Shown one piece after another: positions 6,606 through 52,653 of a stretch of DNA of 64,000 nucleotides. The translations under genes were made by a program, and so were the position numbers. The stretch is from a virus. The DNA lies in IMG/VR virus record IMGVR_UViG_3300028666_000032, positions 5,879 through 69,878 of that record. The stretch is one strand, 5' to 3'. Each line of letters opens with the position of its first letter. Within the stretch, counting starts at the first letter, position 1. The notes below the pieces were generated by a model, which made no database searches, had not been told where the DNA came from, and saw only the letters and a program-made list of their open reading frames with translations.

Positions 6606-6606
6606 C

Positions 6607-34666: not shown

Positions 34667-35437
34667 TCAGCGTTTCTTAGGGTATTTCGGTAGGGCGAGA
34701 GACGCATGACAACCACGAATCCGCTTCGCCGACTCTTCGAGCTTTTCCGCCGTGCTGGCCAATCCGCCCCAAGCATCCGACACACCGGATTTACAGACTG
34801 CCACAATCGCATCGATGATTGTTTGATCGCCGAAATACAGCTTGTTCTCTTCGATGTGCTTCAGCACACCGTCTAAAATCTTCGTTGCCCTTGCGTCTTC
34901 GGCGCGAGCCTTATCAACCGCCATTTTTATGCGCTGCTCATCGGTTAGGCGCAGCTCCTTAAGGCGTTGCTGGCATATGCTTTCGACCAATGCACTATCG
35001 ACCTTTCCAGCGCTGCGAAACAGCGCAGCGACAAACATGCGGTCATATTCCTTCGGTTGCGGGTTTCGCACCGCTTGCTTTTTGATCGACAATCCTTCAG
35101 GTGCAGCCAGCATCCATCCCCAATTAGCGGGTATCTCGGCTTCATCCTCAATCACTTCATCGCTTGTGACGATCCACCATCTATCGCAGAAGGAAGCGAA
35201 GCGTTCGGCCTTTTGAGGATTCGCAAGTTCTCTCTTCCAATCATACTTGCTGACTTTGATTTCGTAACCGTGCATTTCCAGACCATGCGACGGCCACAGG
35301 GCCATACTAATTGCATCGGCAAAGCCGCTATGACGCGCCCCAGTAGCATCAGGCACTTCAAAGAAGATGGCATGCGTCGGCGCACAGAACTTTGTGCGGA
35401 GATGGGTGCATATGTCTTCGGAACGCATGTAAGTCAT
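34667..35437 (-). CDS. MmcB-like PD-(D/E)XK nuclease-fold protein
   Basis: FFEVPDATG...ADAISMALWPS...GYEIKVSKYDW...ELANPQKAE. Confidence 0.7.
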   Translation of the reverse strand: MTYMRSEDICTHLRTKFCAPTHAIFFEVPDATGARHSGFADAISMALWPSHGLEMHGYEIKVSKYDWKRELANPQKAERFASFCDRWWIVTSDEVIEDEAEIPANWGWMLAAPEGLSIKKQAVRNPQPKEYDRMFVAALFRSAGKVDSALVESICQQRLKELRLTDEQRIKMAVDKARAEDARATKILDGVLKHIEENKLYFGDQTIIDAIVAVCKSGVSDAWGGLASTAEKLEESAKRIRGCHASLALPKYPKKR

Positions 35438-35475
35438 GGGATAGAAAGTCGGCGTTAGTGTAATTCAAATGCCGA

Positions 35476-35524
35476 TTGACATCTGATGGTAGTTACAGTA
35501 ACGTATCACTAACGGTCGTGTCAA
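35476..35524 (+). promoter_or_regulatory. promoter with overlapping imperfect palindrome (possible recombinase-binding/res-like site)
   Basis: TTGACA-N17-TAACGT; the segment is bracketed by TTGACA...TGTCAA and contains GTTAC-A-GTAAC. Confidence 0.5.
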
Positions 35525-35544
35525 CTATTGTTTTCGAGTGTCAA

Positions 35545-36207
35545 ATGCAGGGTAAACGAGGCCCCAAAAAGAAGCCATACATCCACAAAATCGCCGAAAC
35601 AACGGTTAAGTGGAAAAAGCGCAAAGACGGCGAGCCGATGATGATCGGGTATGCTCGCGTCTCAATGAACGATCAAAGCAACCAGCGTCAAATAGATTCA
35701 CTGGTCGAATATGGCGTAGCGCCAGAAGATATTTTCCAGGACAAACAGAGCGGTAAAACAATGGATAGGCCAGCGTGGCAAGCTTGTTTCCGCGATCTGC
35801 AAAAAGACGATTGGCTGGTGATCTATTCTCTTGACCGGCTCGGTCGCAACCTTCGCGACCTCCTCGATATTGAGCAACAGCTTTACGAAAAAGGCATCAA
35901 ACTGAAAGTTATCTGTCAGCCCATTGATACCAGTAACGCGGGTGGACGGCATTTCTTTCACATGCTTGCGTCACAGGCTCAATGGGAACGTGAATGGAAT
36001 TGGGAACGCACGATGCACGGCTTATCCAAAGCGCGTGATCGCGGAAGCATCGGCGGTCAGCCTTCGCCGTTCTCCGACAAGGAAATCCGCGCAGCATTGC
36101 GGAAAGCAAAAACCGTTAGTGGTGCGGCTAAGATTTTGAAATGCGCAAAGGTGACAATTCATCGGCGCATGAAGGAATGGGAAGCAGCGAAGGAGGCAGC
36201 AGCATGA
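35545..36207 (+). CDS. small serine recombinase (resolvase/invertase family)
   Basis: MIGYARVS catalytic Ser motif, Q..Q...L, DKQSG...RP, VIYSLDRLGRN, IDTS, and a C-terminal HTH; basic N-terminal extension. Confidence 0.93.
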   Translation: MQGKRGPKKKPYIHKIAETTVKWKKRKDGEPMMIGYARVSMNDQSNQRQIDSLVEYGVAPEDIFQDKQSGKTMDRPAWQACFRDLQKDDWLVIYSLDRLGRNLRDLLDIEQQLYEKGIKLKVICQPIDTSNAGGRHFFHMLASQAQWEREWNWERTMHGLSKARDRGSIGGQPSPFSDKEIRAALRKAKTVSGAAKILKCAKVTIHRRMKEWEAAKEAAA

Positions 36208-37051
36208 GCGACAAACCAGTTACGACGAAAGCTCCGTGCGAAGGCGATTGGATAACTTCGCCACCCCACCAATTTGAGATCATAGACAAGATCGAGGAAG
36301 CGGGCTGGTTTGGATCGAAGAAAGTCCGCGTTATTTACAAATGCAAGGCTTGTGGTCGAGTGACCGAGAATGGCGTGAGACTATGAAATCAGATCAGCCG
36401 CCCGTCTTAAAAAACAAGCATGGATCTTTCAGCATCGGCGACAAGGTTTCTTTTGATGTCGAAAACCAGATCAGTGGTGGCTATAGCTGGGACAGCCACG
36501 GAGAACTGCGCATGCGCAACGGCGAGTTGATTATAAAAACGAGACAGGGCGTCGTGACGATTGGCAAAGGTTACGATGCTTATATCGGCTCAATACGTCC
36601 GCAGGTAGCCAGTCCATACGAGAGGCCGCTGTGAGGGCGACATCGGACCTTCTTAAGAAAGCAGCCATCCAACTCGAATGGCATATCGAACGGTGCGAGA
36701 ACGGCACCGAGGAGGAAGGATTTATTAGCCCGCAGGATGTTTATCCGATGGAGCGATTGGAAATGTCCAAAAGCGTTCTGGCGCAACTCAAGGAAGCTAT
36801 AAATGGCTGAGCCACAAACGACCGACTACGAGACGATCATGGCCGCGCTTTATTATCCCATGAGAGACGATGCAACGTGGGAGAAGATGCAGAAGAAGTG
36901 TCATCAGGCGATAGCGGCTTTTCAGCGTCTAGTCCCACCGCCAGTCAGTAATAAATACGTTGCCCTTGGATGTGAGCCTTTCGGTGTTTCGAATGACCGA
37001 TAAACCACGAAAGCAGACTAACACCGGCTCAGCCGGAGAAACTAGCTATGG

Positions 37052-37627
37052 GTGAGGATCTTGATTGCTTGTGAATGCAGCGGAATTGTAAGGGACGCTT
37101 TTATCCAGCGCGGCCATGACGCTACTTCGTGCGACCTGAAACCGACGCGCCGACTTGGCCCGCACTATCAGGGCGACGTTCGCGACATTCTGCACATGTC
37201 TTGGGACATGATGATCGCGCACCCGGTCTGCAAGATCATGGCGAACAGCGGAGTTAGATGGTTGCATGAAAGACCAGAACGCTGGAAGCTTTTAGAAGAA
37301 GGTTGCGCGTTCTTTAAACTGTTTATCGACGCGGCTCATATCCCGAAGCGTTGCGTTGAAAACTCCATTATGCACGGCCACGCTAGAAAGTTGATCGGCA
37401 GAAAATGGGATCAGATCATTCAGCCCTGGTGGTTCGGAGCGCCATTTACTAAAGCAGCCGAGTTACATCTAATCGGCCTGCCGAAATTGCCGCAGGAAAG
37501 AACGAAGGATAGCTACGATCATATCGAACCGAAATGCTGGAAGATGGCACCGAGTGCCGACCGCGAAGAACTGCGCAGCAATACCGAACCCGAAGTTGCA
37601 CGAGCCATGGCGGAGTATTGGGGATGA
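37052..37627 (+). CDS. DNA cytosine methyltransferase-like protein
   Basis: RILIACECSGIVRDAF...SCDL...DMMIAHPVC...VENS...IIQPWWFG; a phage DNA methylase-like family. Confidence 0.7.
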   Translation: MRILIACECSGIVRDAFIQRGHDATSCDLKPTRRLGPHYQGDVRDILHMSWDMMIAHPVCKIMANSGVRWLHERPERWKLLEEGCAFFKLFIDAAHIPKRCVENSIMHGHARKLIGRKWDQIIQPWWFGAPFTKAAELHLIGLPKLPQERTKDSYDHIEPKCWKMAPSADREELRSNTEPEVARAMAEYWG

Positions 37628-38320
37628 AAAACGAACAGACACAAACGACGCCACCATGGGGGAAATGCCCACACTGCAAAACAAACATCCGCGTCAGGAA
37701 CCGGAGGTTTTATTGCCTTAAGTGTGACAAAGATCTGGGAGAAGCCAAATGAATAGAACGACGCCGGTTAGGGAATTTATGCAGTGGCTACTCCGCGAGC
37801 CATTTTGGATTTTCTACATTGCCGGTGTTGGCCTGCTTTTCCTAAACTTCGTGGGAGCATTCCGATGACATCACAAACGACACTTTCGCCGTCCGAAGAG
37901 GAAGCGTTACGCCTTTGGCAAAAACTGGCATCGGATAATTTGTTCGTGGCTGAGACGCACGACAAGCAACCCGTGAAATATTTCATCAAAGTCGTGTCCA
38001 AATGGCTGGAAGCGAGAGGATCGATATGAGCAACCCACAAACGACTGAACATGACAAAGAAGTCGGCGATGTTTTGGCTGATGCGCTCGCCGCGTTGACG
38101 AACGAAGCCATGCGCCATATCGCGAAAATCTCGAATGATAGAGTGGGCGTTATGCTCGCCGTGGCTACCCTATGCACTCACCGTTTCGAAATGGTTTATC
38201 GGACCGACTTTGCCGATGCGATGCGTGACGCAAAAAAGAAGGACGAAGCGAAGCCCCCAACCGAATACTCCGAGGCTTTGGTGGAGCAATGAGCAAAACA
38301 GATACCACGAGTGACGCAAC

Positions 38321-38911
38321 GTGATTGCCGCGCTGTTTGTCATGCCTAACGGCGCATATTTTAATCTTCCCGATGTCGATCCGTGGGACGAAAAAAGGGA
38401 TGCGCGGAAATATGACGGGCCGTATCCGGTTGTTGCTCACCCCCCATGTGCGCGGTGGTCGAGACTGGCAAAATTCTGTGAGGCGCGGCATGGACTAAAG
38501 GTTGGGGAGGATGGCGGTTGCTTCGCAGCTGCTCTAGCGGCGGTTCGTAAGTTCGGTGGCGTGATAGAGCATCCTGCGTTCTCTAAAGCGTGGGCATCGC
38601 ATGGATTGCCTAGACCGCCGACAAAGCATCACGGATGGACTGTCGGGTTAGATGGCGGGGCGTCCTGTTATATCGAGCAGGGAAGATATGGTCATGTAAT
38701 GAAGAAGGCAACTTGGCTTTACGCTTTTAGAGCTGAACTCCCTGAGCTCAAGTGGGGGTACACCCCGGACAGCGAAGGAAAGTTGGCTACCAAACGGGAT
38801 TGGCGCGGCGGTATGGACAAATGGAGAAACGCAACTGGATATAAAGTTGCTAATGCAACGCCACAAGAATTTAAGGAAGTTTTGATCGCAATGGCTAGGA
38901 GTGTAAAATGA
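38321..38911 (+). CDS. DNA methyltransferase-like protein
   Basis: DARKYDGPYPVVAHPPCARW...GGVIEHPA...KKATWLY. Confidence 0.6.
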   Translation: MIAALFVMPNGAYFNLPDVDPWDEKRDARKYDGPYPVVAHPPCARWSRLAKFCEARHGLKVGEDGGCFAAALAAVRKFGGVIEHPAFSKAWASHGLPRPPTKHHGWTVGLDGGASCYIEQGRYGHVMKKATWLYAFRAELPELKWGYTPDSEGKLATKRDWRGGMDKWRNATGYKVANATPQEFKEVLIAMARSVK

Positions 38912-41900
38912 AAGACACAACACAAACGACCCGGATAAACACATGAGGCGCGGATCATCGCAAGCAACCATCGATAGATCGCCCATCAGGACATTTTATA
39001 CGGTCGGAGGGTTCTATAAACTATACGACAATAACTTTGCATCGCAAGGTAAGACCAAATGTGACGTTTGCTGCCAGGAAGAATGGTCGGGAACTTTTTA
39101 CCACAAAGAGAAATTCAATTGCTGCAACTCGCACGCTATCTCTGCCGAAAATATCCTCGCATCCGGAGCCACATGGCAAGACGCCCTACAACTATCACTT
39201 TGCAACGGAATTTTGATGGAGATTAGCAAATGCATGAAGGCGGAATAGCTCCAATCACAGACCGTTTCAATCTTATGGATTTTACGGACTCACTAATCAA
39301 TGACCTTAAGCTTCTGCGCGAAGGTGAAATATCAATCCACGAAGCGCACGCTCGCGCCAACCTAGCAAAGCAAGTCCTCAAGTCCGTTCACTACACGATT
39401 GTGGCTCAAAAGTTTATGATCGAGCAGGCGCAGTTGGCAGAGAAGCCGGTTCAAATTGCGAAGGGAAAAAAGAAATGTCCAAAGAAACAGTAACGACCGA
39501 CCTGCTCGACCGGTTCACAGCCTTTGTGATGGGGGTCCACTTATTGCTCGTTGCCCTAATCATCGGGGTGGCCATCTGGGAGGCAGCACATGGACGATTC
39601 TAAAACCACGGTAGACAAAATCGACAAACTGCTTCGAGAAAGGGCACGCGAACTTCTGGATAGCACGCGCCTCGCAATCGAAATCGCCTTTCGCGATCCG
39701 AAGTATCAGCAGCTAGTTTGGATGGCGATAGCCGAGACAGCAGAGAAATATGCCAGAGCAGCGGAAAGGGAAGCCAATGCCAAAATCTAATTCACATCCG
39801 ACGAGGATGCCATGTTCTTTGGACTTTTAATTTTAGCTTTCTGGATAAAGGAGAGGTTCGATGTCTAAACCACAAACGACTGGACGTTCACCAACAACGA
39901 AGAAGATTGATCCGACTGTTGGCCGCGATAGCGTCATCGTTCGCCTTACGCTTCTAACTGGAGCATGTCGCCAGCCGCGTATCTCGAAGAAGCAGATCGA
40001 GGATAGTTTGCAACGCTACATCAAGGAGCTGTCCGATGGCTGATCCACATACCACGAGCCGTGACATCGACGAAGCTTGCTACGGCGGCATTATGGACGA
40101 CAAACCTAACACCACGCGACACAGCCCCGACTTGTGGGACGAAGCCTACGAAACTGTCGTGACGCTTCGCGGTAGCAGTGATGTGCCAGGGTTCTATATC
40201 TGTGTGGAAACGGAATATCAGAAATTGTTGGAGGCGAGAGATGCCCAATCAAACTGAAACGACTGCCAAGGCGCACGAGCTTGCAATGAGGATAAGCCAC
40301 TTTTGCTGTTCGTCGATACGGCACGATGAGACGATTTTGAAATCCGTCACTGAATTTATCCAAGAAGAATTGGATGCCGCTTATACGGATGGATGGAAGG
40401 CCGCTAATGGAGAAACGCGATGAGTTCACAAACGACGAGGAGAAACCAATGATCGGACATTTCTGTAAGGCGCTTCATAAGTTCATCTTCACCCGCTGGT
40501 CTAGCTGCGAGCATTGCCATGGTAAGTAAGCCAGAAACCACAAGACCTCCAATATGGCTATGGTTGCCGATCACGCTGTTCCTTCTGCTGGGTGCGTCGG
40601 TGATTTTATCTGGCTGCTTTATGTGTCCATCGATGGACGACAACTGCCCACTCTTGCGAGGCAACGGTGACTGATAATCCACAAACCACAAATTCTGATG
40701 ACTGGCTCGCTGGCTATCATCAGGCGCTTGAAGATTCAGCAACGCTAGTCGAGACCCATCTAGTCTATCCGTATTGTGCCACGAAATTGCAGCCGATCAC
40801 TAAGGGACGAGCAACTAAAGGCAACCAGCCACGCCACGTTTACGCAGAGGCAATAAGGGCAATGAAGGAGACGGGACTATGATCGATAAACCAGAAACCA
40901 CGAGCTTCACATGACGGACGACAACATCATCAAGCTTCAAAATGTGAAAGAGGTTGTTGATCCTGCGTCTTGTGCGAGGAGCGGCAAAATTATGCTCCAC
41001 TACAACATTGAGGATCACGACACGGTTGAACTTGAGGGAAGCATCACGCTGGCGGAGTGCTGCTTTCTTTACATGAAGCTTGGTCAGTATTTGAACTCAG
41101 AACTTGGAGATGAGGAATGACACATACGACCGAGACATTTGAAATCCCCGGCCTACCCGGATTATGGCGGGAGATCGAGGCTCGGTATGATTATGAGAAA
41201 GACAAAAGCCGTTGCCCGAATTGCCACGGTATCGGAATCCCTTGGGCTGGATGGTTTAGTTGCGACACCGCCTGTCACTGCAAGGCCCTGGTGGAAGATG
41301 GGCGCGCCTTTGTTCCGGTGGTGGGGCCATGACAACTAAAACGACTCGTAAGAAGAAATCGATCCCTTACGATCAAATGTCCGAAGACGAACAGGAAGAT
41401 TTTCGAAGGGAGACTTGCCGAATAGTAAAATGCGCAACCCGATTCAAATGTGATGAGGAAGACGATGAAGACTGATCCACATACCACGCCTGCCGTTGTC
41501 CGATCTCTCGACGACCTTTTCGCGGAGGCGAGGCGCTATGGACTGATCGACATTTTCGGTTCAGCCGATGGCACCTATTCAGCGAACATCACCTTCTCGA
41601 CCGTCACCAATACCAAGCTGGAGGCCAGAAGCGGACACGGCCATCCAACACCAAACATGGCCTTGCAATTCGCGATAGATGCGGCGCGTTCGATTGTCAC
41701 ATCGGTAAAGGAGCTGGCCAATGTCTGATTCACAAACGACAATTCCTTGGAAGTCAATCAGCCAATATCATGGCGGCGAAGCTCTGTTCTATTACCCAGA
41801 GGTCAAGGGAAGCCAGCACGCTTCGAACGATAGATCGGCGACATGCGACTTCGGCCTGCCGTGGAAAAACAGGAAGCCAACTTACTTCACCTACGTTTTC

Positions 41901-43354
41901 CCGCCGGAGGAAGCATGACAACTGAAACCACGAAACCGCTAGAAGAATATTCCGATGAGGCCAAAGCACTCGCTCTCGATGTCTGGAGAGCGGGGAACAG
42001 ACACGGCCCGGACGCAGAACGACAGATGGATATTTTGAAAGTGTGCGCGGAGTATTTGGAGAAGGCCAGGCGTGATGCTCACAAGGCCGGGTTCATAGAG
42101 GGATTTGCAAAATGAGTAAACCCCAAACCACACCGCGCTGCCCACACTGTGGCTACACGAAGCAGGATGCAATAATTCACGGAGATCACTGGCTTTGCAA
42201 AGGCAGGCAAGACGCTCCTTGGGAAGTCGAAGCGGCATACCAGAACTTGCAACGCGCAGCCGTGAAAAGGAACCCATTCAATGGAGCAATCTGAAACCAC
42301 AGCCTGCGGCTACTGCGGCTGCATCCACCAGACCAAATGTCCGATGGTGAAGGCTATCGAATATCATCAGGATGGCACAGTGAAGCGCGTCGAGTTTTAT
42401 TCGGCGTCGGACTACATGCAAAAGGCCGTAGTCGTTCCGGCGCATCAACCGGCGATCACCGAGACAACTTGGGGCGAGCATTGGGGGAAAAATGGCTAAT
42501 CCACAAACGACCTTTTTCAAAATAAGAGATAAGGTGCGCGATGTTACTTTCTGGATTTTGCTGCCAGTAATTCTTCCGCTAGTTCTGGTTGGGTATACCT
42601 TTGGGTATCTTTATGGATATTTTCGAGGAGCTTTTATTTTGGGGAGTGACCCGCATGCCCAATAATCCACAAACGACTGACCTGATCAACAGGCTTCGCG
42701 GTCACTATCGCACGCCGATCACCGACGGCCTTGGGCCAGCAGGCGGTGAGGAGCCGGACAACCCGCATGAGCACGTTCGGACATTTCCCGTGCCACCAAT
42801 CCATAAAGAGGCTGCCGCCGAGATCGAGCGACTGCGCAATGGCATCAAAAAGGTGCTGAATGAGGGAGTGCAGAAAACGGAAGGACCATACTCACCGAAG
42901 AACAATAAATGCAAACACGGCAGATACGGCTACGAAGGCTGCGACAATTGCACCGACGAATTTTTGGAGGAGTTGCTCAATGGATAAATCAGAAACCACG
43001 GCCTCCCGCATCGAAGAAGCGGCGGAAAACCTTCTTAACGCTATTGAGGGCAAGACCAAGAGTGAAGCCGTGACCATCATCATTGGGTATTCTCGTAAGA
43101 TTTATAGGGATGCTCGCGCGCATGAACGGGAGGACTTGCATGGCATCGCCAACCAAAACTGAAACGACCAGAGAGGATCGTCATTACGCAACCATCGGTC
43201 ACACATGGGCATACGTGCCACTGGATAACCAGCTCTATAACCCGTGGGCCAAAGAAGGGATTGAACCGCTCTATATAAGGATGGTCGGAGGCCCGAACGA
43301 TGGGCGCTGGCTCGTATTTAAGGATCAGAGAGCTTATGACAATTGGGTGCTGGC

Positions 43355-43558
43355 ATGAGTGGGAAAACAGATACGACCTGGCAGACGATGGAAACCGCGC
43401 CGAAGGACGGAACGATGGTTCTGCTTTTCAAGCAATCGTCCGGCACAAAGGGTTCGGGATATTGGGATGAGCGCGAACAATTCTGGCGCATCGGCGGCAT
43501 GTGTTATTTTAACGGTGCCTCTCATTGGGCTCCATACCCGGAGGTGCCAAATGCCTAA
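43355..43558 (+). CDS. DUF551-like protein
   Basis: WQTMETAPKDGTMVLL...SHWAPYPEVP. Confidence 0.7.
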   Translation: MSGKTDTTWQTMETAPKDGTMVLLFKQSSGTKGSGYWDEREQFWRIGGMCYFNGASHWAPYPEVPNA

Positions 43559-43859
43559 ACCAGATACGACGCTTAACAACCAACCAAAGGAGAACACCAT
43601 GAAGAAGATTGTTACCGAAGTTGAAGGCGAAGGATTGGTTAAGCTTCTCGGAGAAACCGTTACGCTGTTCTGCGCCTCATATATCTACACTGGCAAGCTT
43701 GTCGGCGTGAATGATAGCTGCGTCCTTCTCGATGACGCAAAAGTCGTTTACGAAACCGGCGCGTTTAACGAGAAGGAATGGAAAGACGCTCAAAAACTCC
43801 CCGGCTCCTGGTATATACAATTGGGAATGGTCGAGAGCTTCGGCATCTTGAAGGTGTAG
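43551..43859 (+). CDS. Sm-like fold phage protein
   Basis: LLGETVTLFCASYIYTGKLVGVNDSCVLLDDAKVVYETG; internal AAGGAG RBS and ATG at 43599. Confidence 0.55.
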   Translation: MPKPDTTLNNQPKENTMKKIVTEVEGEGLVKLLGETVTLFCASYIYTGKLVGVNDSCVLLDDAKVVYETGAFNEKEWKDAQKLPGSWYIQLGMVESFGILKV

Positions 43860-43889
43860 AAATGTACGCCATCAAAAAGAAAAAATATT

Positions 43890-44015
43890 GGTCGCGGTCG
43901 CGGTCGGGGTCGGGGTCGGGGTCGTGGTCGTGGTCGGGGTCGCGGTCGTGGTCGGGGTCGCGGTCGTGGTCGGGGTCGCGGTCGTGGTCGGGGTCGCGGT
44001 CGTGGTCGGGGTCGT
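43890..44015 (+). repeat. GGTCGN hexamer tandem repeat (21 units, 18-nt higher-order unit) within ORF 43862-44020
   Basis: Encodes SRSRSGSGSGSWSW(SGSRSW)4SGS. Confidence 0.9.
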
Positions 44016-45647
44016 TATGAAAAATCCACAAACCACACTTGACGACATCACGCTGACAAGTTTTATCGACGCGATCAAACTGGCTGTCGATGGTGGTCAT
44101 AACAATATTGCCCCTTTGGGAATGTCGGGCGCGAATATATACCTGCACCGGAAAGAGAGCCGTGCGCAGGAAGTGTCGATCCGGCTTTACTGTGGGGATG
44201 CAGAACTGTTGATTACGAACGAGAGCAAGGATTTTCTCTTTTATGGGCGCTATGACATTTCTCTTGGCGTCGATTTTGTGGCGAACGAATATTATAGAAT
44301 CTTTTACCTGCTCAAAGGCAAAATACCGAAAACGAAAGAAGACAGGGAGCCATTAAAGATTCAGGAAAATCCGGAATACTCAATCGGCTTTAAGATGTTG
44401 GATAAATATTATGGCCGATAATCCACAAACGACCGCTTGCCGCGCCTGCATGATTATCTTTTGCGTGTTCGTCGCGCCTCTGGTCATGCCATTCATCGCG
44501 CTCAACCACCTGCGCCGCAATCTCGGTAGCGCTTTGGGCTACTGGTGGCTCGACATGCGGCAAGAGGTCAATTCGTGGAGGGACGCATGGCCGAAGTGAA
44601 ACCGCAAGTTAGGAAGCGCCCGACAGGGGAGAAAGAAGTCACTCTTCGTTTTACCATTCATGGCAACATGCTTAGGTGCGACGACGCAGGAGAGATTAGC
44701 TGCAACAACTTGGCGGACGATGACATGGCCCTTACTTTTGGGGAGACGCTTGCTGGGTATCTACAGGGGTATTTCTATGACTACAAAAACTGAAACCACG
44801 ACCGTGAAGCCATTCACCGCCTTTGTAGTGGGAGTGTATTTTGCTTTGCTAACTGGAGCAGTTCTACAGACTGTTGGCCAAACGACTACGTGTAAACCGG
44901 AACCCATTACGATGTGGAATGCCGTTGAATATCTGACATGGGTATATGGCGGTGGATTTGCCGGATTTTGCATCGGGAGAAAACTATGACAACAGAAAAG
45001 ACGACCGATTACGAACGCATCCTCCAAAGTGTGTTGGGGAAATATAACAATACTATCACAGCGGAAGATGGCAGCAAGAGGTTGGAACTCGGCGATTCCG
45101 TTTATCTTGAATTTGATTCCGATGAAAACTATACGGGAGCTTATAGCTATGAATGATCCGCATACCACTCTCCCTGCCGTTAATCCAGAATTATTGAAAC
45201 TCATGCATCTGGCAAATGCGGTTTCATACACGAGGGCAGCCTATGAGTTCTCTCCTTACTCTAAAGAAGAGGCGCTGCGGCTGGCAAAGGAGGAAATGGA
45301 TGCCTATAAACGATAAAACACAAACGACTGCCAAGCTTGATCTTCAGGCGAAGAAGCACGGTGCACGCTTCCGCACGCAAGATGGCAGGATCGCTACCCT
45401 GATCGCCTTCGACCGAAGATTGAAGCGTCCTTATATTTTTCGAGTTGGAGACGAGGTGTGGACACGACGCAGAGATGGAACGCACTGCGCCACATGCGAC
45501 GGCACCGTTTACCCGGCGATTGTGAGGCAGCTATGAAACCAGAGACCACGAAACGTCTGCCCTCTTGGCGCTTTGGTATTTGCATGAAGCCCGGAAAGAT
45601 CAACTGCATGCACAAGACTGGAAAGCCTTACTACTATCCGGTGAGCC

Positions 45648-46205
45648 ATGACGACTGAAGCAATCAGCAAAAAACCTAAACTCCTAGAGGCTGGGCACGC
45701 AGACAACTTCCAAACGCCGCCTTCAGCACTCGATTGCTTACTTCCCTATCTCAGGCGTGAGTGGCGGATATGGGAGCCAGCATGCGGAAAAGGAAACTTG
45801 GTTCGCGCATTTCACGACAACGGATTCCGAGTTACGGGCACCGATATAGATAGCGGAAGCGACTACGACTTCCTAAACATCCCACTCGGCAGCGACTTTT
45901 CGCTGATGTGCGATGCCATAATCACGAACCCGCCATTTTCGGTCAAAGAGAAGTTTCTTTCGCGCTGCTATGACTGGCAAATGCCGTTCGCCCTGCTCAT
46001 GCCAATCACAACCTTCGACAGCCGGGAACGCAGGAAGCTTTTCAGCCGCCATGGTGTTCAGATCATCCTACCAAATGGCCGCATCAACTTTGAAACGCCG
46101 AACGGCAAGGGATCGTCAAGCTGGTTTTATACAGCTTGGTTCACGCACGGGCTTAACCTTCCGAAACAGCTAAACTTTCACGGTCTTGAGATGGAGCTTG
46201 TATGA
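45648..46205 (+). CDS. DNA adenine (N6) methyltransferase-like protein
   Basis: FQTPP, IWEPACGKGNL (motif I), IITNPPFS (motif IV) and RINF. Confidence 0.85.
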   Translation: MTTEAISKKPKLLEAGHADNFQTPPSALDCLLPYLRREWRIWEPACGKGNLVRAFHDNGFRVTGTDIDSGSDYDFLNIPLGSDFSLMCDAIITNPPFSVKEKFLSRCYDWQMPFALLMPITTFDSRERRKLFSRHGVQIILPNGRINFETPNGKGSSSWFYTAWFTHGLNLPKQLNFHGLEMELV

Positions 46206-48113
46206 AGGAAACACAAACTACGATTGAAAAGCTGAAAGAGATGCGCGAAGAAATGGTGCTAAAGGCCATTTCTTTGAAGCAGATTATCTCTCAACTTGAG
46301 ATCGCGAATGAAATGGCCGAATCATTAGAAAAGTGCCGGGCGCAATTTGCCTTCTATACGGCCAACCATTTGTCGGCAGGAAAGGCGGATAGGGAAAAGA
46401 CAAACTCTGAATTTGCCGAATTGTGCCTGTCGGTTTTAATAAAGTGGGAGAAAATAAATGACTGAAACTACTCTCGACGACGATCCGGTTCGCACGATGG
46501 CATACAAACGTGGCTTCAATAACGGGCTTGAGGAAGCGGCAAAGATAGTTGATGCCGTAGGCTACTCGGGTGGTCTGAAGAACTGGCAAGCGGCCCAGAT
46601 GATCCGAGACATGAAGGTCGCGCCATGAAACCAGATACCACAAAGGTTCAAGTTGAGGGGCCGGAATTGAATGAATATGCCGAGCAAACCCTCATGCAGT
46701 TCATCGAGGAGTTGACGGAACTGTTGGACAAGATTCCAGCGGCCCATAGAGATCAGGCGACAATCAGAGGTTCTGGGGAATACACCACTTACACCTACGT
46801 TGAATACGACCGCCCCGAGACTGACGAAGAAAAAGACAATCGGTTGGAGAGAGAAGCCAGGATGCGAACCGAGAATGAAAAACGGGATAGGGAGCAGCTT
46901 GCGAAGCTGAAGGCAAGATATGAAGCCTGAATCTAAAACGACGAAATGGTGGCAAGCAGCCATCGGCTATACTTCGGCAATCCTTCTATTTTGGAAACCG
47001 GAGATTTGGCGAGCGTTCATGAAGGGATTTCGCAATGGGTGATACTGGCGCACTGGTGGCAGCGTTCCTAGCCGTATTCGTGTTTGGTGCTTTTTGCGGG
47101 ATCGCAATTTTTGCCGCTGGATCAAAGTGGGGAAAGCATGACTGACGAATTACAAACGACAATCTCAGAAAGGTTTTGGCGTTGGCTCTACAAGTTTTGT
47201 GACCGGCAGATCGCAAATATTTATCTCTATCGTCAGCATGTGAATTTGAAATGCCCGAACTGCAATCAATGGTCACACAATTACGAATATCGCTTCATGT
47301 CATCGGACGGAGATTTCGACACCCTGAGATGTGGATGTTGCGGGCAAGAAACTGAATGGCGATGCGAAGGCGGATTTTGGTTCACGAAGAAGGAGTTTCT
47401 AAAACATGCAGTCTAAGGATTTACAAACGACGACCAGAACAGCTTCGGATCGGGATACGATCAAGGATACCTTGCTGGGCTGAAAGCCGTTCGGGATTTC
47501 ATGAGCGGAGATGTCGATGCCTAATTCAGATACCACGGCTAGGGCGTAATGGCAATTCTCAGAAAGCTTACTGAGGTTGAGAGGGAAGCTAAGATCGCAA
47601 GCTTGAAGCGTGAGCGTCATTATTTCTTGCAACGCTATGAGTTATCAAAAGAGAGGTGGCAGTTGATGGCTGCGCTTTCGGTTGCAATCGAGATTTTTCA
47701 TTGGAGGTTCCATGCCCGATAAAACGATAACCACGAACGTAGTCGGCTTTAAGCCAAAAGAAAAAACACATTACGTTAAAATCGCTCGTAATGGAGAAAG
47801 GTTCTGGCTGCGAGCGTTGCCCGATGGAATGAGCGGCACGAAATATGGGAAGGTTGATAACCATCTCATTGAGGCGCACCCATATAAATACGGGGACGTA
47901 ATAGAATACAAACAGGATGAGGTATTAGATGAACAGCGAACCTAAAACCACCACCATTAGCATCGAGAACGCACATCCCTCGGCCCGTCCACTTTCGTGT
48001 GCATAATGCTTGCCGGCATGATGGGTTTGGTCTTTCGCCGGGTCAGTCTTGCCTTGCCGTCCGTACTGGCGGATAATGCAATGAAGGCCACTGGGGCCTA
48101 GGGGGGGTGCGTT

Positions 48114-48563
48114 ATGCCTGAGCCAATAACGATCGGCGTCTTCGTAGTCGGTGTACTTGTCAAGATCGCCGAAGGCGGCGTAGCCGAGCTCGCCAAAAGC
48201 ACTGCAAAGCAGGCGTACGCAGCACTCAAGGGCAAGGTTGCGGAATGGGCGGGGGCCAAAGTGGAGGTGCTCGAGGCCGCGCCCGACTCTGAAAAAATTC
48301 GGCGAGAGATTGCGGAGGCAATCGATAACCGCGACGGCGCGGAGCAATCGCTGATCAGATCCCTGGCACAAGCTGTGATCGACAAGGAGTCCAGCGGCAG
48401 CGGACGCGCCATCGCCCTCGATTTTGGCGACTTGAAGAATGTTGCGGTCACCCTCAAAAAAGTAAGTGCTCAAGGCAACGCCACAGGTGCTCAATTCAGA
48501 CGGGTTGAAGGCGGCACCATCAATGTCGATGAGGCTTCTGCCGCGAGCAGCGCAAAAAAATAG
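48114..48563 (+). CDS. Bell/RHIM-associated-like small helical protein
   Basis: MPEPITIG...AKQAYAALKGKV...LEAAPDS pattern with a beta-rich G/N/V tail; ends A AAA AAA TAG. Confidence 0.5.
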   Translation: MPEPITIGVFVVGVLVKIAEGGVAELAKSTAKQAYAALKGKVAEWAGAKVEVLEAAPDSEKIRREIAEAIDNRDGAEQSLIRSLAQAVIDKESSGSGRAIALDFGDLKNVAVTLKKVSAQGNATGAQFRRVEGGTINVDEASAASSAKK

Positions 48564-48592
48564 AGACAGCAGCGATAACTGCCCGCACCGCT

Positions 48593-49441
48593 GTGCCGAA
48601 TAACGGGCCCTATTCTGATGCAGGCCGCGACAATGGCGGCCCAAGTGTGGCCGCAACTGGTGTGCTCATAAACGTAGATCAGTCAAGTTCTGCTAATAAC
48701 ACTTCCCAAGACCTAGTAATGAAGCTAATGGGGCCTTTGGCAGAGCGTGCAGGAAAGCACTTGGCAGAAGTTCTGGACCACGGCCTTGCCTCAACTGGGG
48801 CTAAGAACGTCGACTCCCATATCGAAAAGGTGAAGGAAGTCTCTGGAATCTCAGAGCCAACATTTACTCCGAAAAAAACTGAGAAACTTGCCGAGTGGGT
48901 GACCGAGGCATCTGAGGTAAATGAGCGAGAAAGCCCGGAACTGGCGGCTGCATGGCGGGCAGCACTGGCGGATATATTTAGCGGCAATGACTACGAGTTG
49001 CTAGCGATCGCAAAGAAGCTTACCAAAAGAGATATTCAGACCATGATGCGATTACATCACGGTGACGAATTGGATTTTCACGATGCTGGCGACAGGCTTG
49101 TGATGCTAGGAATTGCAAAAAGGGTGCCGTTCGGCGGACGCCCATTTAGGCTCTGGGTATTGCTTACACTTACTGTAAGTTTAGTCGCAGTCGCACCTTT
49201 TCTCGCTGAGTCAGTAGAGGCTGCGCGTCATGTGAGCGTGAGTCTCGACTCGGACACACCGATTGGCTCAATGATTCGGGCGGCCAAGAGCCTCGGCTTG
49301 GCCAGTGGAATCTGCTATGTACTCGGTTCCGTATACTATCTGTTTGCCAATGCGAGCAGGCTTTCTGGCTATCGTCTTAATTATATAGGCGATGAGGTAT
49401 ATTCCAAAATACGACCTTATCTTCCAGATGAACTGAAATGA
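48593..49441 (+). CDS. Abi-alpha/DUF4393-like domain with two C-terminal TM helices
   Basis: LAEWVTEASEV...PELAAAWRAALA...LLAIAKKLT; hydrophobic LWVLLTLTVSLVAVAPFL and LGLASGICYVLGSVYYLF; weak GTG start without an RBS. Confidence 0.45.
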   Translation: MPNNGPYSDAGRDNGGPSVAATGVLINVDQSSSANNTSQDLVMKLMGPLAERAGKHLAEVLDHGLASTGAKNVDSHIEKVKEVSGISEPTFTPKKTEKLAEWVTEASEVNERESPELAAAWRAALADIFSGNDYELLAIAKKLTKRDIQTMMRLHHGDELDFHDAGDRLVMLGIAKRVPFGGRPFRLWVLLTLTVSLVAVAPFLAESVEAARHVSVSLDSDTPIGSMIRAAKSLGLASGICYVLGSVYYLFANASRLSGYRLNYIGDEVYSKIRPYLPDELK

Positions 49442-49453
49442 TTCCGGCCGTGA

Positions 49454-49756
49454 GCAAACCTAAATCCCAGCACCGCAGCAGGTCGGTTGATCTTCCACAT
49501 CCTCGTAACCGTGGCGCAGTTCGAGCGGGAATGGAGCAATGAGCGCAGCTTGCATGGGCTTATTAAGGCCCGGGAGCGCGGCGTGCGCGGCGGTAGGCTC
49601 AAGACCTACACCGATATCGAGATCGCCGCAGCGATGAAGAAGACGAAAGGCAATTACGAAAAGGCCGGGGAGATCATCGGTGCGAAAAAGATCACGATGA
49701 TTCGGCGTTGGAAGAAGATGCCAGGAAAGTTAAAGCTAGGCGTGAAGACGAAATAA
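49454..49756 (+). pseudogene. N-terminally truncated serine recombinase
   Basis: NLNPSTAAGRLIFHILVTVAQFEREWSNERSLHGLIKARERGVRGGR plus HTH aligns with the C-half of 35545-36207; catalytic domain missing, in-frame stop at 49451. Confidence 0.85.
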
Positions 49757-49841
49757 AGTTGCCGAAAATAGCAATAGTATTGCTCCGATTGTAACTATTT
49801 ATTGTAGTCCAAAGGACTATACTCCTAGCTATACAGTCCTT

Positions 49842-51104
49842 ATGGACACCTCGGCTACGGAGATGACTATGGCTACCCAAGAAAACAATACGGTCAAAAG
49901 GACCTTCCAGATACCAGCGGAAAATCTCACCATCTTTCTCGGCAAGATCGACGAACTGAATCGCCGCGCCAAGCGCATGAAGCAGCAACCCATCACTATC
50001 ACGCGCGGACCTGTCGCCAACGCGGTTCGCATGATCTCCACCAAAGTCTATGGCGCGTTCGGCCAGACCGAATGGCGCGACAAGCCAGTCACCGTCGAGT
50101 TGCATGAGATCACCGTTGAAGGTCAATCGCCCCAGATCACCGGCTGGACGCTCGTCTCGCGCCTCCAATACATCGATGGCTCCATTCTTGCCCATAGCGT
50201 CCCCGGCGAGACGTGTCCGGCAAAATACCGCGATGATTGGTCCAAGCGTTGCGACCATTGCAACACCAATCGCACCCGCAAGGATATGTTCATCGTCCGT
50301 GATGAGGCCGGAAAGCACATCTGTGTCGGGCGCAACTGCGTCAAGGATTTTACCGGCCATGTCTCACCGAACGAGCTGGCTTTCGCTGCTGAATGGCTGC
50401 ACTCTGTTTCCGAACTCGGCAACGAGGACAACGATATTTACAGTGGCGGCGAAGATGCCCGCCTCCAACTCACCGACCTTCTGGCCTGTGCTGCTTGCGC
50501 CATCCGTAACATCGGCTGGGTAAGCAAGAAAGCAGCCGACCAGAACGGAACGAAGCCCACTGTCACGATTGCCATGACGCTTTTGTGCGGTAAGCAGCCC
50601 GAGGGGGTGAGTGTCGAATTGATCGTTGACGACAAGGACCAGGCCATGGCGGAAGCCGCCATCGAATGGGCCAAGCAGATCAACCCTCTTGGCGATAACG
50701 ACTACCTGCTTAACCTCCGCTCAATCGCGCAGAAGATCATCATCTCCGGAAGGATTTCCGGTCTCGCGGTTTCGCTCGTGTCTGCCTACCAACGCGAGAT
50801 TGGCATCGTTGCTGCCCGCAAGAAGATGGCGGAAGAAAGCCGCCACGTTGGGGAAGTCGGCAGCCGGGATCGATTCAACCTGACGGTCGAGAAGATCATC
50901 GACATCATTGGTCACTACGGCATGTCTCACATCCACCTTTTCCGCGATGACCATGGCAACGTCATGAAGTGGAAGTCGTCGCGGGAGCGCCTCGATACTG
51001 GCAAAACCTATCAGGTCAAAGGCACGATCAAGTCCCACGACCTATACGCAGACATCAAGCAAACCTGCCTGAGCCGGTGTGTGTGCGTGGAGGCCGCGAG
51101 ATGA
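49842..51104 (+). CDS. conserved phage hypothetical protein (Zn-binding CDHC/VGRNC, C-terminal OB-like fold)
   Basis: CDHCNTNRTRKDMFIV...CVGRNCVKDF; VKGTIKSHDLY...QTCLSRC. Confidence 0.6.
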   Translation: MDTSATEMTMATQENNTVKRTFQIPAENLTIFLGKIDELNRRAKRMKQQPITITRGPVANAVRMISTKVYGAFGQTEWRDKPVTVELHEITVEGQSPQITGWTLVSRLQYIDGSILAHSVPGETCPAKYRDDWSKRCDHCNTNRTRKDMFIVRDEAGKHICVGRNCVKDFTGHVSPNELAFAAEWLHSVSELGNEDNDIYSGGEDARLQLTDLLACAACAIRNIGWVSKKAADQNGTKPTVTIAMTLLCGKQPEGVSVELIVDDKDQAMAEAAIEWAKQINPLGDNDYLLNLRSIAQKIIISGRISGLAVSLVSAYQREIGIVAARKKMAEESRHVGEVGSRDRFNLTVEKIIDIIGHYGMSHIHLFRDDHGNVMKWKSSRERLDTGKTYQVKGTIKSHDLYADIKQTCLSRCVCVEAAR

Positions 51105-51313
51105 GGCCACGCGAGATACGTGCCCTGCGGCTTTCCCTGGACCTGTCACAGCCAGAATTTCTGGAGAGGCTTGGCATAAAATCGGCTCGTTCGGCAGCAG
51201 CACGGCAGATGGTCAGTCGATGGGAGCGCGGAGAGCGAAACCCGTCAGCAGCAGCTACCGCCCTTATCGAGCAGCTTCGCGACAAGACGGCACGGAGGAG
51301 AGCAACGGCATGA
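51101..51313 (+). CDS. XRE-family HTH regulator
   Basis: MRPREIRALRLSLDLSQPEFLERLG...VSRWERGERNP. Confidence 0.8.
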   Translation: MRPREIRALRLSLDLSQPEFLERLGIKSARSAAARQMVSRWERGERNPSAAATALIEQLRDKTARRRATA

Positions 51314-51528
51314 TCGAATTTGACCCAAAGCGGACTCTACCCAACCTGAGCCGATGTCCGTTCTGTGGTGGTGATGCTCATTGGAATTACAGCTCAGGCG
51401 TGGCGTCCGGCGTCTCCTGCATCGAAATGGGTTGCCGGGCCAATGTTTCGTTCCACACGATGCGCAGCGAGACGCCGGAGGAAATTGCCAACCACTGGAA
51501 TACGAGGTTTGTCCGTGTCCAAGCCTGA
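51310..51528 (+). CDS. Lar-family restriction alleviation protein
   Basis: LSRCPFCGG...CIEMGC...IANHWNTR. Confidence 0.7.
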   Translation: MIEFDPKRTLPNLSRCPFCGGDAHWNYSSGVASGVSCIEMGCRANVSFHTMRSETPEEIANHWNTRFVRVQA

Positions 51529-51765
51529 TTCACAAACCACAATAGATCGAGTTGATGCCATGCTCGATGATATGTTCAAGGTCGATGGGCCAGAACTTAT
51601 GCAGCTTTCCCTCGGTGACTTCCGAAAACTTTGCTGGAAAGAGGATGCTTGCGGAGAATTTATCGCGGCGACAGCGACGATGGATGATATGACGGTGATC
51701 CAGGTCTCCAAAGAAAATGGGCCGAGCGTTTTAATTGATCCTGACGGTCATCCGCTGAGGTTCGC

Positions 51766-52137
51766 ATGAACAATCCACAAACCACGAAGGTCACTCACAT
51801 AGCCTTGGTCGATTCTCCGCCTGACCCGAACTGTGTTTGGGAAATGCCAAAGTCGGGAGACGGCATAACTTGGTCTCGCTGCACCAAGTGTGGTGAAATT
51901 AACATGGATGCGAACAAGTCGGTTGAATGTAAATGCCAACAGTTAGAAGTAGCGAAGTCGCTTAAGCGGTGCCCGTTCTGCAATGGAACGCCTGCGCTTT
52001 CAACTGAAACGAAGAAATTCCGGTCAGGTGGAAACGGAAAGGTCCATCAGATATTTTGCATGAACTGCTTTGCGGTGATTGATTCTCTTCACAGCTTCGG
52101 TGATGCCGCTGAGGCATGGAACAAGAGGGTAACATGA
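51766..52137 (+). CDS. Lar-family protein (cassette-motif start MNNPQTT)
   Basis: LKRCPFCNG...CMNC...AAEAWNKR. Confidence 0.7.
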   Translation: MNNPQTTKVTHIALVDSPPDPNCVWEMPKSGDGITWSRCTKCGEINMDANKSVECKCQQLEVAKSLKRCPFCNGTPALSTETKKFRSGGNGKVHQIFCMNCFAVIDSLHSFGDAAEAWNKRVT

Positions 52138-52182
52138 CACAACTTGCGTTAAAGCAGTGCCCATTCTGCGGCGGACATGCGG

Positions 52183-52368
52183 TCATAAGACCCAGTCGGG
52201 AGCGCCTATCTCGGCCCGTTCAAGTGTTTTGCTCCAGCCCTTGAGCCGGAGCGTGGCCTCTTTCTTATCAGCCGTTCGAAGAGAACGTCGATGCTCGCGC
52301 CCGGCAAGTCGGACACGGCCCCAGTATACGTCGCCGCGCTTGTAAAGGTGCCCACTGGCCTTCGACAT
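52183..52368 (-). pseudogene. tyrosine integrase N-terminal (arm-binding) remnant
   Basis: HLYKRGDVYWGRVRLAGREHRRSLRTADKKEA is typical of an integrase N-terminus; stops after about 61 aa with no catalytic domain. Confidence 0.75.
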
Positions 52369-52559: not shown

Positions 52560-52653
52560 GGCTTTCTGCCGTATTCGGCAATAATATTGCTTTTTGTTTG
52601 GATACTACATCATCTTCATTGACTGTTCATAATTATAGCATAATATATGCCCT

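Follow-up and report, generated by a model that had tools for sequence, protein, structure and literature searches.

A gene array behind a Gin-like serine recombinase in a soil phage looks like a new integron-like gene-shuffling system

DNA invertases, such as Gin acting on the gix sites of Mu and Cin acting on the cix sites of P1, are the nearest kin of the recombinase described here. Their crossover sites also lie inside coding sequence, where, according to the annotation of the Mu record, a constant start is joined to alternative bodies. The multiple-inversion Min system of p15B is a further gene-switching system of the DNA-invertase type, and a pair of inverted half-sites is the target of the known small serine recombinases. 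Integrons (IntI, attI, attC and Pc) have a recombinase platform at the head of one-directional, promoterless and unrelated cassettes, and the platform supplies their expression. In pdif modules, accessory genes lie between short recombinase sites and are shuffled among replicons; there, the recombinases are tyrosine recombinases of the host, and the sites are intergenic, alternate in orientation and give no translational fusion. The pdif (XerC/D) modules of Acinetobacter plasmids (PMC9455709) served as a comparison system. In T4-type phages, the available parts of two papers describe PeSL (promoter-early stem-loop) modules as short repeats that bound small accessory genes in a hyperplastic region and mark where relatives gain, lose and swap genes; these intergenic repeats consist of a promoter and a terminator and are believed to work by homologous recombination (PMC2839356, PMC4122927).

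Here, we describe a region of a soil phage in which about 45 small accessory genes start with a common in-frame DNA word. Since this word lies by a Gin-like recombinase, and since relatives exchange genes exactly there, the array looks like a new integron-like gene-shuffling system. The main features are listed below, in coordinates of the window (the whole stretch of 64,000 nucleotides that was analysed).

35490 to 35544, no strand assigned: putative control region, with paired TACNGTA-type short palindromes, then two GTCAA boxes about 20 nt apart
35545 to 36207, + strand: small serine recombinase, 220 aa, Gin/Cin-like (PF00239, E 1.2e-36)
36204 to 48006, + strand: candidate cassette array of 59 short, mostly overlapping ORFs, about 44 site-to-site units
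49460 to 49756, + strand: truncated second serine recombinase of the array-poor group B type, with the end of the E-helix and the C-terminal domain and without the catalytic domain
51515 to 52137, + strand: two site-bearing genes starting VSKPDSQTT (84 aa) and MNNPQTT (123 aa, Lar-like), the 123-aa protein matching phrog_599
53243 to 53665, + strand: distal gene starting MTETT (ACG GAA ACT AC), found by the looser scan described below

The earlier note on this DNA had bounded the system at 35545 and 49756. The first of these is indeed the start of the recombinase gene, but three further site-bearing genes (51515, 51766 and 53243) lie past the second.

By sequence, the recombinase is closest to Gin and Cin. 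Among solved structures, it is nearest to the DNA-invertase entries 4m6f and 3uj3 (E about 1e-34; gamma-delta resolvase reaches 5e-21), its best matches in deposited phages are annotated DNA invertases (38-44% identity), and it is 41% identical to Mu Gin, with which it shares Y5, R7, S9, R67 and R70 (numbered from MMIGY). Of these residues, S9, R7, R67 and R70 are invariant in an alignment of eight sequences that includes Mu Gin, as expected of the catalytic domain of a small serine recombinase. Gamma-delta and Tn3 resolvase chains, including their DNA-binding domains, align to residues 2-179 and 2-183 of the query, and no separate Pfam helix-turn-helix family was reported at E <= 0.01. Unlike the DNA invertases, the clade has an extra basic N-terminal extension of 31 residues (KRGPKKK...YIHKIAETTVKW), which is part of the coding sequence from 35545 and conserved across lineages. 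At E <= 1e-40, the recombinase has at least 150 relatives in metagenomes. Upstream, the second GTCAA box abuts the start codon, and the layout of palindromes and boxes recurs in the group-A loci examined; the boxes themselves vary, being imperfect in G000 and absent as exact words in L152.

The word is enriched and confined to one strand. In the 64-kb window, the + strand has 32 copies of the strict 11-mer NCWSAWACSAC and the - strand has none, whereas 100 dinucleotide shuffles of the window gave 1.26 +/- 1.06 occurrences and 4 at most. A looser pattern (a start, then 0-6 codons, then xCx xAx ACx ACx), scanned across the entire 69,878-bp record, matched 49 times on the + strand and twice on the - strand. 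The 49 matches represent 44 distinct sites, 43 of them between 36,803 and 53,243, and these 43 array sites all use one reading frame. Each site is made of the 9-nt NCWSAWACS followed by AC, read in frame as [P/T/S][Q/E/D/H/K]-T-T, and information content drops to zero directly past the AC of the second Thr codon. The word always stands 0-6 codons after a start that has a Shine-Dalgarno-like sequence ahead of it, and the looser scan of the entire record found none at the starts of structural and replication genes. The earlier note had claimed that one 11-mer recurs in the same frame in the starts of the cassette genes, that similarity ends directly after it, and that structural and replication genes lack it; all this was borne out.

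Codon usage within the word is strongly skewed: Gln codons are CAA throughout (18 of 18; background 0.45, p 5e-7), 16 of 19 Pro codons are CCA (p 6e-6) and 39 of 42 codons for the first Thr are ACC or ACG (p 1e-5), while the third base of the second Thr codon is free. One position takes Lys, Asn, Asp or Glu. Since its synonymous sites are constrained, the word is a nucleic-acid signal, with a constraint that acts on nucleotides and not on a peptide. It is therefore very improbable that x-x-Thr-Thr is an N-terminal tag (a degron, packaging signal or modification site), even if about 44 proteins have an invariant N-terminal Thr-Thr. A tag would also fit poorly with the interchange of Lys, Asp and Glu at two positions, with the presence of the word in peptides of just 10-12 residues, and with the 70 of 74 homologues of one body family (KIYGWYD) that lack a Thr-Thr leader just ahead of the conserved body.

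The array follows the recombinase with the ATGA overlap that had been claimed, the recombinase gene ending at 36207 and the first array gene starting at 36204. Our gene model has 59 ORFs 3' of the recombinase (36,204-48,006), and 44 of them carry an in-frame site. The AC cores of these sites lie at 36225, 36821, 37648, 37880, 38044, 38307, 38929, 39496, 39608, 39879, 40054, 40262, 40435, 40540, 40688, 40900, 41129, 41344, 41486, 41739, 41930, 42130, 42299, 42510, 42676, 42998, 43167, 43376, 43569, 44035, 44432, 44798, 45167, 45327, 45548, 46220, 46470, 46640, 46941, 47159, 47430, 47535, 47733 and 47950. ORFs overlap at 56 of 59 junctions (25 of them by 4 nt), which leaves no intergenic DNA there. 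In 41 of 41 overlapping junctions, the stop of the preceding gene is complete 3 nt or more ahead of the AC core (permutation p 0.016), in agreement with the earlier proposal that a unit is a gene body followed by the ribosome-binding site, ATG and first codons of the next gene. Neither promoter-like sites (17 found, 15.5 expected) nor terminator-like sites (25 found, 21.8 expected) are enriched in the array. Two DNA methyltransferases, at 37052 and 45648, are among its cargo.

Six further ORFs stand directly behind short leader ORFs, five of which contain an in-frame site; the sixth leader, at 36993, has an out-of-frame look-alike only. These leaders, and one that is fused in frame to its gene, are as follows.

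36993 to 37055, + strand: 20-codon leader ORF that ends in overlap with the GTG of the methyltransferase gene (37052) and has a site-like AAACC+AC in another frame
38289 to 38324, + strand: site-bearing mini-ORF MSKTDTT..., 11 aa, ending in overlap with the GTG start of a 196-aa gene at 38321
38908 to 38946, + strand: site-bearing mini-ORF MKDTTQTT..., 12 aa, in ATGA overlap with the gene at 38943
40420 to 40452, + strand: site-bearing mini-ORF MSSQTT..., 10 aa, in ATGA overlap with the ORF at 40449
40879 to 40914, + strand: site-bearing mini-ORF MIDKPETT..., 11 aa, in ATGA overlap with the gene at 40911
43551 to 43598, + strand: in-frame leader MPKPDTT, fused via a translated native 5' leader (with AAGGAG) to the native start MKKIV
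47517 to 47549, + strand: site-bearing mini-ORF MPNSDTT..., 10 aa, with 1 nt of its stop shared with the ATG of the gene at 47549

The match of the 196-aa protein to phrog_12600 starts at its residue 1, and a frameshift artefact is therefore ruled out as the origin of the leader at 38289. The alignment of the methyltransferase at 37052 to phrog_757 likewise begins at its residue 1, and P0127-P0129, close homologues of the gene at 43551, begin at MKKIV. We count this placement of cassettes with their own start, behind coupled mini-ORFs or in-frame leaders, in favour of the cassette reading. It can also be read in another way. The word could primarily serve an early operon as an mRNA signal or a translation signal (a repressor operator or an initiation enhancer), with exchange as a by-product of short-repeat recombination, as in PeSL modules, and the recombinase as a syntenic neighbour with another job. 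Genes unable to carry the word would then sit behind coupled mini-ORFs, the word would be expected just past a start with a ribosome site, and the Sak4-like annealing protein encoded by this phage might make use of short homology. We regard this explanation as possible but distinctly the less probable one: an RNA-binding site needs no frame lock, yet the other two frames, which are mostly open, are used by 0 of 43 sites, and the late, highly expressed genes lack the word.

The geometry of the word also speaks against a translation signal, as it fits that of the gix and cix half-sites. Both the Mu gix and the P1 cix half-sites end in AAACC followed by the annotated 2-bp crossover, and the four invariant bases of the word all match them, so that by sequence the word resembles one gix/cix half-site and its crossover dinucleotide. 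The likeness stops at the core. DNA invertases have two inverted 12-bp half-sites around a 2-bp core, whereas the array site has one conserved half, which counts against the cassette reading: against the left-half matrix, the 9 nt that follow the core score like random sequence (mean -16.5 versus -16.9), the conserved element is a non-palindromic word of 11-14 nt, and the loci scanned, in the vicinity of the recombinase gene and beyond, yielded no palindromic full site.

Natural variants have their breakpoints at the site, in one case resolved to the AC, in agreement with the earlier expectation that gain, loss and reordering would map to the word. The loci L139 and L142 are 99.9% identical, and L139 is short of one site-to-site unit. 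The join in L139 reads ...CAAACCAC|G..., where diagnostic bases flank the AC on both sides; the junction is thus the AC, the last two bases of the word. A longer shared CAAAC was not used, which counts against short-repeat recombination at a translation signal. The deleted unit measures 163 bp, awkwardly short for excision as a circle, and this counts against the cassette reading. L139/L142 is the one junction resolved in DNA, the remaining exchanges being seen as proteins only. Among these, four protein clusters have bodies that are 90-100% identical behind unrelated leaders ending in TT (three leaders each for the KIYGWYD and REDRHY bodies, two each for ACGYCGC and KLDLQAKKHG), and P0036 carries a leader of the window, MASPTKTETT, on a different body.

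The frame lock, the site-to-site indel and the leader swaps would all be left unexplained if the recombinase, or its truncated paralogue at 49460-49756, bound the words purely as a regulator (for instance, throttling the early operon) and did not recombine them. Single half-sites would suit one helix-turn-helix domain, and a copy without the catalytic domain is kept in the window (it covers PF00239 positions 103-144 only and has 80.9% DNA identity to the L146 recombinase). However, all 8 aligned sequences keep the catalytic residues of the full-length enzyme, and we consider such a role improbable.

The word, with its frame, strand and nucleotide-level constraint, co-occurs with one recombinase clade in otherwise unrelated phages. 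We inspected 13 loci with recombinases 67-75% identical to that of the window (L132-L143 and L152; three pairs represent one lineage each). Eleven, which are all those with at least 240 nt of flank, carry 1-8 strict words beside the recombinase gene; in L139 and L142 these lie upstream and on the other strand, and L133 has two convergent arrays. No word was seen in L134 and L143, where the downstream flank measures just 17 and 6 nt, respectively. In a further lineage, G003, an array adjoins a 69%-identical recombinase. The expectation that homologous recombinases head similar arrays was therefore correct for every distinct lineage at least 67% identical with flank to inspect. Among more distant recombinases (41-60% identity), 5 of 8 loci lack the word, and those of 51-56% identity are mostly without arrays. 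By blastn, arrays of different lineages have no detectable DNA similarity, and inter-lineage similarity is limited to the recombinase gene and about 200 nt upstream. No other protein common to the array-bearing lineages was found, and that the recombinase is the sole one argues against its being a mere neighbour of a translation signal. In favour of that alternative, two lineages found by motif alone have arrays with no recombinase gene in view: G004 and G001 (about 41 kb, incomplete, G004 being 77% complete by CheckV) and G002 (a 10-kb fragment) gave no PF00239 match.

Taken together, these results support the earlier reading of an integron-like gene capture and shuffling system that uses a serine recombinase in a phage. 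We consider it somewhat more probable than its negation that the 14-kb region is a recombinase platform with a cassette array, in which exchange takes place in frame at a single half-site with an AC crossover. A Gin/Cin-like serine recombinase and its putative control region would head an operon of about 44 promoterless, translationally coupled units, each running from site to site (gene body and stop, followed by the next gene's ribosome site, ATG and first codons). The site would be a single recombinase half-site, NCWSAWACS, with the crossover dinucleotide AC directly after it. Translation reads the site in frame as x-x-Thr-Thr, so that exchange between any two sites would fuse an intact start to an intact body. 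Between direct repeats, exchange could take place inside one genome or between genomes that replicate together, and units would thereby be deleted, duplicated, inserted or reordered. The serine recombinase is presumably the catalyst: it would bind the half-site and cut at the AC, with a second subunit that copes without a right half-site. Excised circles may form, and new genes may be captured by the array. Alternatively, the recombinase could serve a different purpose (dimer resolution, for example, or regulation from the conserved upstream region) and be merely syntenic with the array.

Compared with the DNA invertases, the array has dozens of sites, all in direct repeat and each in the first codons of an unrelated gene. 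No inverted pair bounds an invertible segment (32 words on one strand of the window, 0 on the other), and whole genes would be expected to be deleted, inserted or reordered, in place of the inversion of one segment. Compared with PeSL modules as far as the available parts of the papers describe them, the repeat is a coding word of 11-14 nt, promoter and terminator motifs are not enriched, junctions overlap, and one recombinase clade accompanies the word arrays. Integrons are similar in the precise gain and loss at sites beside a conserved platform, seen here in the L139/L142 indel, the leader swaps and the restriction of inter-lineage similarity to the recombinase and its upstream region. They differ in that the gene adjoining the array encodes a serine recombinase and not an IntI-type tyrosine recombinase, that a non-palindromic word among overlapping ORFs takes the place of attC hairpins, and that the carrier is a phage. 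Since the site is an in-frame coding word, the platform would donate the translation start as well as transcription, unlike that of integrons.

We give an even chance to the broader view of a phage "serine integron", in which a widespread Gin-like clade maintains arrays whose genes are captured, lost and reordered at the AC that follows a single half-site. With that half-site and AC within the first codons, the platform would hand an incoming gene its ribosome site, start codon and reading frame. If true, phages would have a natural recombination system that makes in-frame gene fusions and whose asymmetric targets consist of a half-site only.

The record that holds the window is 69,878 bp in full, and one run assembles a circle of about 69.7 kb (Logan contigs). 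It belongs to a tailed phage and encodes a tape-measure protein, a portal, a large terminase, a DnaB-like helicase and a Sak4-like annealing protein. The claimed enrichment of the word, the 11-mer NCWSAWACSAC that reads in frame as (P/T/S)(Q/E/D/H/K)-Thr-Thr and consists of a putative 9-nt half-site and an AC core, is borne out: it occurs 32 times on the plus strand and never on the minus strand, against 1.26 ± 1.06 in shuffled sequences (largest value 4). A looser scan of the whole record, for a start codon, 0-6 codons and then xCx xAx ACx ACx, gave 49 matches on the plus strand and 2 on the minus strand, i.e., 44 distinct sites, 43 of which fall within 36,803-53,243. The main features are the following.

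Features of the recombinase and array region
35490-35547: control region upstream of the recombinase
35545-36207, plus strand: Gin-like small serine recombinase (the recombinase), 220 residues, PF00239, E 1.2e-36
36,204-48,006: array, 59 ORFs in the gene model, the first gene behind the recombinase beginning at 36204
48114-49441: two larger genes without the word, which interrupt the array ahead of a truncated recombinase; no Pfam family for either
49438-49756: truncated second recombinase, lacking the catalytic domain

Neighboring ORFs overlap at 56 of the 59 junctions, by 4 nt at 25 of them, and promoter-like and terminator-like motifs are not enriched in the array, which therefore reads as a single long, translationally coupled operon. 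Its cargo includes two DNA methyltransferases and one Lar-like protein. When the genes are aligned on the word, the information content is high from three bases ahead of it and zero directly past the AC of the second Thr codon. A simple repeat of GTC/GTG hexamer-like units, with several open frames, lies between two cassettes at 43870-44015; it interrupts the Logan assembly and draws contigs of other organisms, with a depth of 21-72 relative to 2-25 elsewhere. The ORF at 40036-40257 has two in-frame leaders (the start codon and first codons up to Thr-Thr), MADPHTT... and, 19 codons later, MDDKPNTT, and looks like a leader ORF whose stop was lost.

The word acts as a nucleic acid signal, not as a peptide. 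Codon choice within it differs strongly from that in the bodies of the same genes: Gln is encoded by CAA at 18/18 sites (background 0.45, p 5e-7), Pro by CCA at 16/19 (p 6e-6), and the first Thr by ACC or ACG at 39/42 (p 1e-5), while all four codons are used for the second Thr. Amino acids interchange, with Lys, Asn, Asp and Glu at one position of the word and Gln, Glu, Asp, His and Lys at another. Five ORFs of only 10-12 codons carry the word, and their stops overlap the start of a larger gene. A sixth leader ORF (20 codons, 36993) is likewise coupled to the methyltransferase gene at 37052; the only site-like word that it carries is in a different frame. The leaders before 37052 and 38321 are real rather than frameshift artefacts, since both proteins match their PHROG families from the first residue on. 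Because synonymous sites are constrained and mini-ORFs carry the word, we rejected a peptide tag. A phage tRNA was also rejected as the cause of the codon choice, as no tRNA genes were found in the phage. Two site-like words are out of frame, one at 3558 of the relative L138 and one at 36993-37010 of the window (MSDQKPR... and MTDKPRK...), the second of which opens the 20-codon leader ORF.

The unit proposed in the earlier note, which runs from one site to the next, fits the junctions. At all 41 overlapping junctions with a site, 3 nt or more separate the end of the upstream stop from the AC, a rule that survives in only 1.6% of permutation trials, and the length of the overlap rises with that of the leader (r 0.57). 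The word variants xCT-GAA and xCT-AAA hold the upstream TGA or TAA within the half-site, and the RAW signal just ahead of the word is partly the upstream stop codon. In gene 43551, the reading frame of the leader extends across the ribosome site of the captured gene and into its native start.

The earlier note also asked whether breakpoints of gene gain, loss or reordering fall at the word, and breakpoints do so in one indel and in the leader swaps of several protein clusters. The indel separates L139 and L142, two loci with related recombinases that are 99.9% identical over 1.48 kb, L142 having one extra gene.

Junctions of the indel, in array orientation
L142, site A: ...ACTCAAACCAC|ACCAGAA...
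L142, site B: ...TCACAAACGAC|GAAAATA...
L139: ...ACTCAAACCAC|GAAAATA...

L139 therefore combines leader A with body B and is shorter by exactly one site-to-site unit of 163 nt. The bases that distinguish A from B flank the AC on both sides, which places the crossover within the AC. In the main rival explanation, the word serves as an mRNA signal and genes are exchanged there by ordinary short-repeat recombination; we regard it as rather unlikely. A longer shared CAAAC, 3 nt upstream of the AC, was available in this pair and is not the crossover point. A second indel between the two loci (L142 2364-2862) concerns an extra gene adjoining the recombinase control region, and its flanks carry a repeated TTTTGGGGTTAG ribosome-site block instead of the word.

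Leader swaps recur among proteins. A body of 92 residues (KIYGWYD...) is unchanged behind MANDSQTT, M(DKM)TQTT and MADNVTVTT, and the protein P0036 joins it to the window leader MASPTKTETT. The body of window gene 43140 is found behind MASPTKTETT, MSSDSPTT and MSETQTT, that of 42281 is identical behind MEQSETT and MSDKPQTT, and that of 45300 follows either MPINDKTQTT or MSDSHTT. Among clusters with relatives from other contigs, that of 46202 kept the same leader, without a swap. The 41465 cluster differs by a two-residue deletion inside the leader, and the 43355 and 43551 clusters include relatives that lack the word and begin at a native Met. Short native N-termini prevail in the KIYGWYD family: 70 of its 74 homologues have them and carry no Thr-Thr leader immediately ahead of the conserved body. 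The word has thus been added to the copies that arrays carry.

Four rhizosphere runs gave Logan contigs without site-to-site joints, which tells nothing either way because rare variants are lost from contigs. Contigs of two runs (X3 and X4) match the window from 39494 on, with unrelated G+C-rich sequence before. This break precedes the AC core of gene 39475 by 2 nt, and its foreign side resembles a site with one mismatch; two other loose ends (52286 and 53743) are not at sites, and we give the 39494 break no weight.

Searches with an alignment of the recombinases gave 19 metagenome loci, 2 genome loci and 2 further viral loci. The expectation that homologous recombinases head similar arrays held in the group of 13 loci at 67-75% identity (L132-L143 and L152), where 11 carry 1-8 strict words beside the gene; the two without a word, L134 and L143, have only 17 and 6 nt of downstream sequence. 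This group includes three same-lineage pairs (L134/L135, L138/L139 and, over the array, L139/L142). The words of L139 and L142 are found upstream of the recombinase and on the opposite strand. L152 belongs to a cultured isolate, Paraburkholderia ultramafica LMG 28614, with a recombinase 71% identical to that of the window and two site-bearing genes behind it. At 41-60% identity, five of eight loci lack the word, and one (L149) has a four-gene array with CAG and GAG variants. Between lineages, blastn similarity covers only the recombinase gene and some 200 nt ahead of it, with none among the arrays. The clade comprises at least 150 proteins at E <= 1e-40, the best 120 of which share 55-83% identity across most of the 220-residue length and come from contigs of up to 78 kb; among deposited phages, no recombinase is closer than 44% identity. 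L133 has two convergent site-bearing arrays at 4520-7855, with 8 genes on the plus and 5 on the minus strand; sites in both orientations thus share one genome, and inversion between the two arrays would be possible.

Searches for close relatives of the window were negative: megablast of 35000-50000 had no match in deposited phages, single-protein locus searches of viral_contigs found none with the 420-aa protein or the cassette protein at 43140, and the exact 33-nt KIYGWYD cassette sequence had 0 matches there. Viral contigs were also scanned for exact matches to the word pattern. Among the matches listed, 121 loci were scanned and four stood out, representing at least three further lineages. 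G001 and G004 belong to the same phage (15,401 nt at 99.99% identity), G002 is a 10-kb fragment, and G003, 52 kb in size, is a complete genome that has terminal repeats. By strand, the four whole records hold 0/7, 7/0, 5/1 and 0/4 strict words, a distribution described as strand-pure. These phages have almost no proteins in common with the window, one clear exception being the G003 recombinase, which is 69% identical to that of the window and lies just upstream of a five-gene array. No PF00239 match was found in G004/G001 (about 41 kb) nor in G002, both of which are incomplete; these arrays do not fit the recombinase reading and count against it.

The closest solved relatives of the recombinase are the DNA-invertase entries 4m6f and 3uj3, which we take to be Gin. 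It is 41% identical to Mu Gin, with the catalytic residues conserved. Its basic N-terminal extension of 31 residues (35545-35637, KRGPKKK..YIHKIAETTVKWKRPKDGQ) is conserved in the clade; Gin lacks it and group-B recombinases have a different one. As a guess, it might add unspecific DNA contacts. The AETT within it was rejected as a site because it is conserved as protein, not as DNA. The control region has two short TACNGTA-type palindromes with 6-8 nt between them. Two GTCAA boxes follow at a spacing of about 20 nt, and the second directly adjoins the recombinase ATG. This layout recurs in L133, L135, L139-L143, L129, L137 and L152 (the last without exact GTCAA boxes), and looks like an operator/promoter hub common to otherwise unrelated phages. 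The truncated recombinase has 80.9% DNA identity to the array-poor L146 type. Ahead of it is the out-of-frame leader MIPAVSKPK, which has an ATGA overlap with a 282-aa gene; the junction of the truncated recombinase could not be placed at a site.

The geometry of the word was compared with that of Mu gix and P1 cixL sites taken from annotated records. The gix sites read TTATCCAAAACC-TC-GGTTTACAGGAA and TTCCTGTAAACC-GA-GGTTTTGGATAA, their annotated boundary falling in the central pair, and cixL reads CAATCCTAAACC-TT-GGTTTAAGAGAA, where TT holds the annotated crossover. Half-sites of gix and cix end in AAACC immediately ahead of the 2-bp crossover, much as A-W-A-C-S immediately precedes AC in the word, and all four invariant bases of the word (C-8, A-5, A-3 and C-2) match. 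According to the Mu record annotation, gix, like the word, is also part of a coding sequence, where it links one constant start to alternative bodies. However, the 9 nt to the right of AC have no likeness to the left half and a search for a palindromic full site found none in the loci scanned, so the canonical dimer site is absent.

Taken with the breakpoints, these observations make it somewhat probable that the recombinase and the array form a platform that shuffles whole genes at putative in-frame half-sites, as the earlier note had proposed in calling the array integron-like. Among the papers listed in full-text literature searches, none describes such a system. To our knowledge, no machine for stacking and shuffling single genes other than the integron is well understood. 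Integrons depend on tyrosine recombinases and folded attC sites and are carried by bacteria, whereas the candidate described here is phage-borne, with an invertase-type serine recombinase and sites within coding sequence. If this reading is true, it would raise the mechanistic question of how a small serine recombinase works on a site with one specific half, and the system could serve as a compact means of fusing genes in frame or exchanging cassettes. It would also be a second, unrelated solution, found in phages, and a different route to the fast turnover of phage accessory and anti-defence genes.
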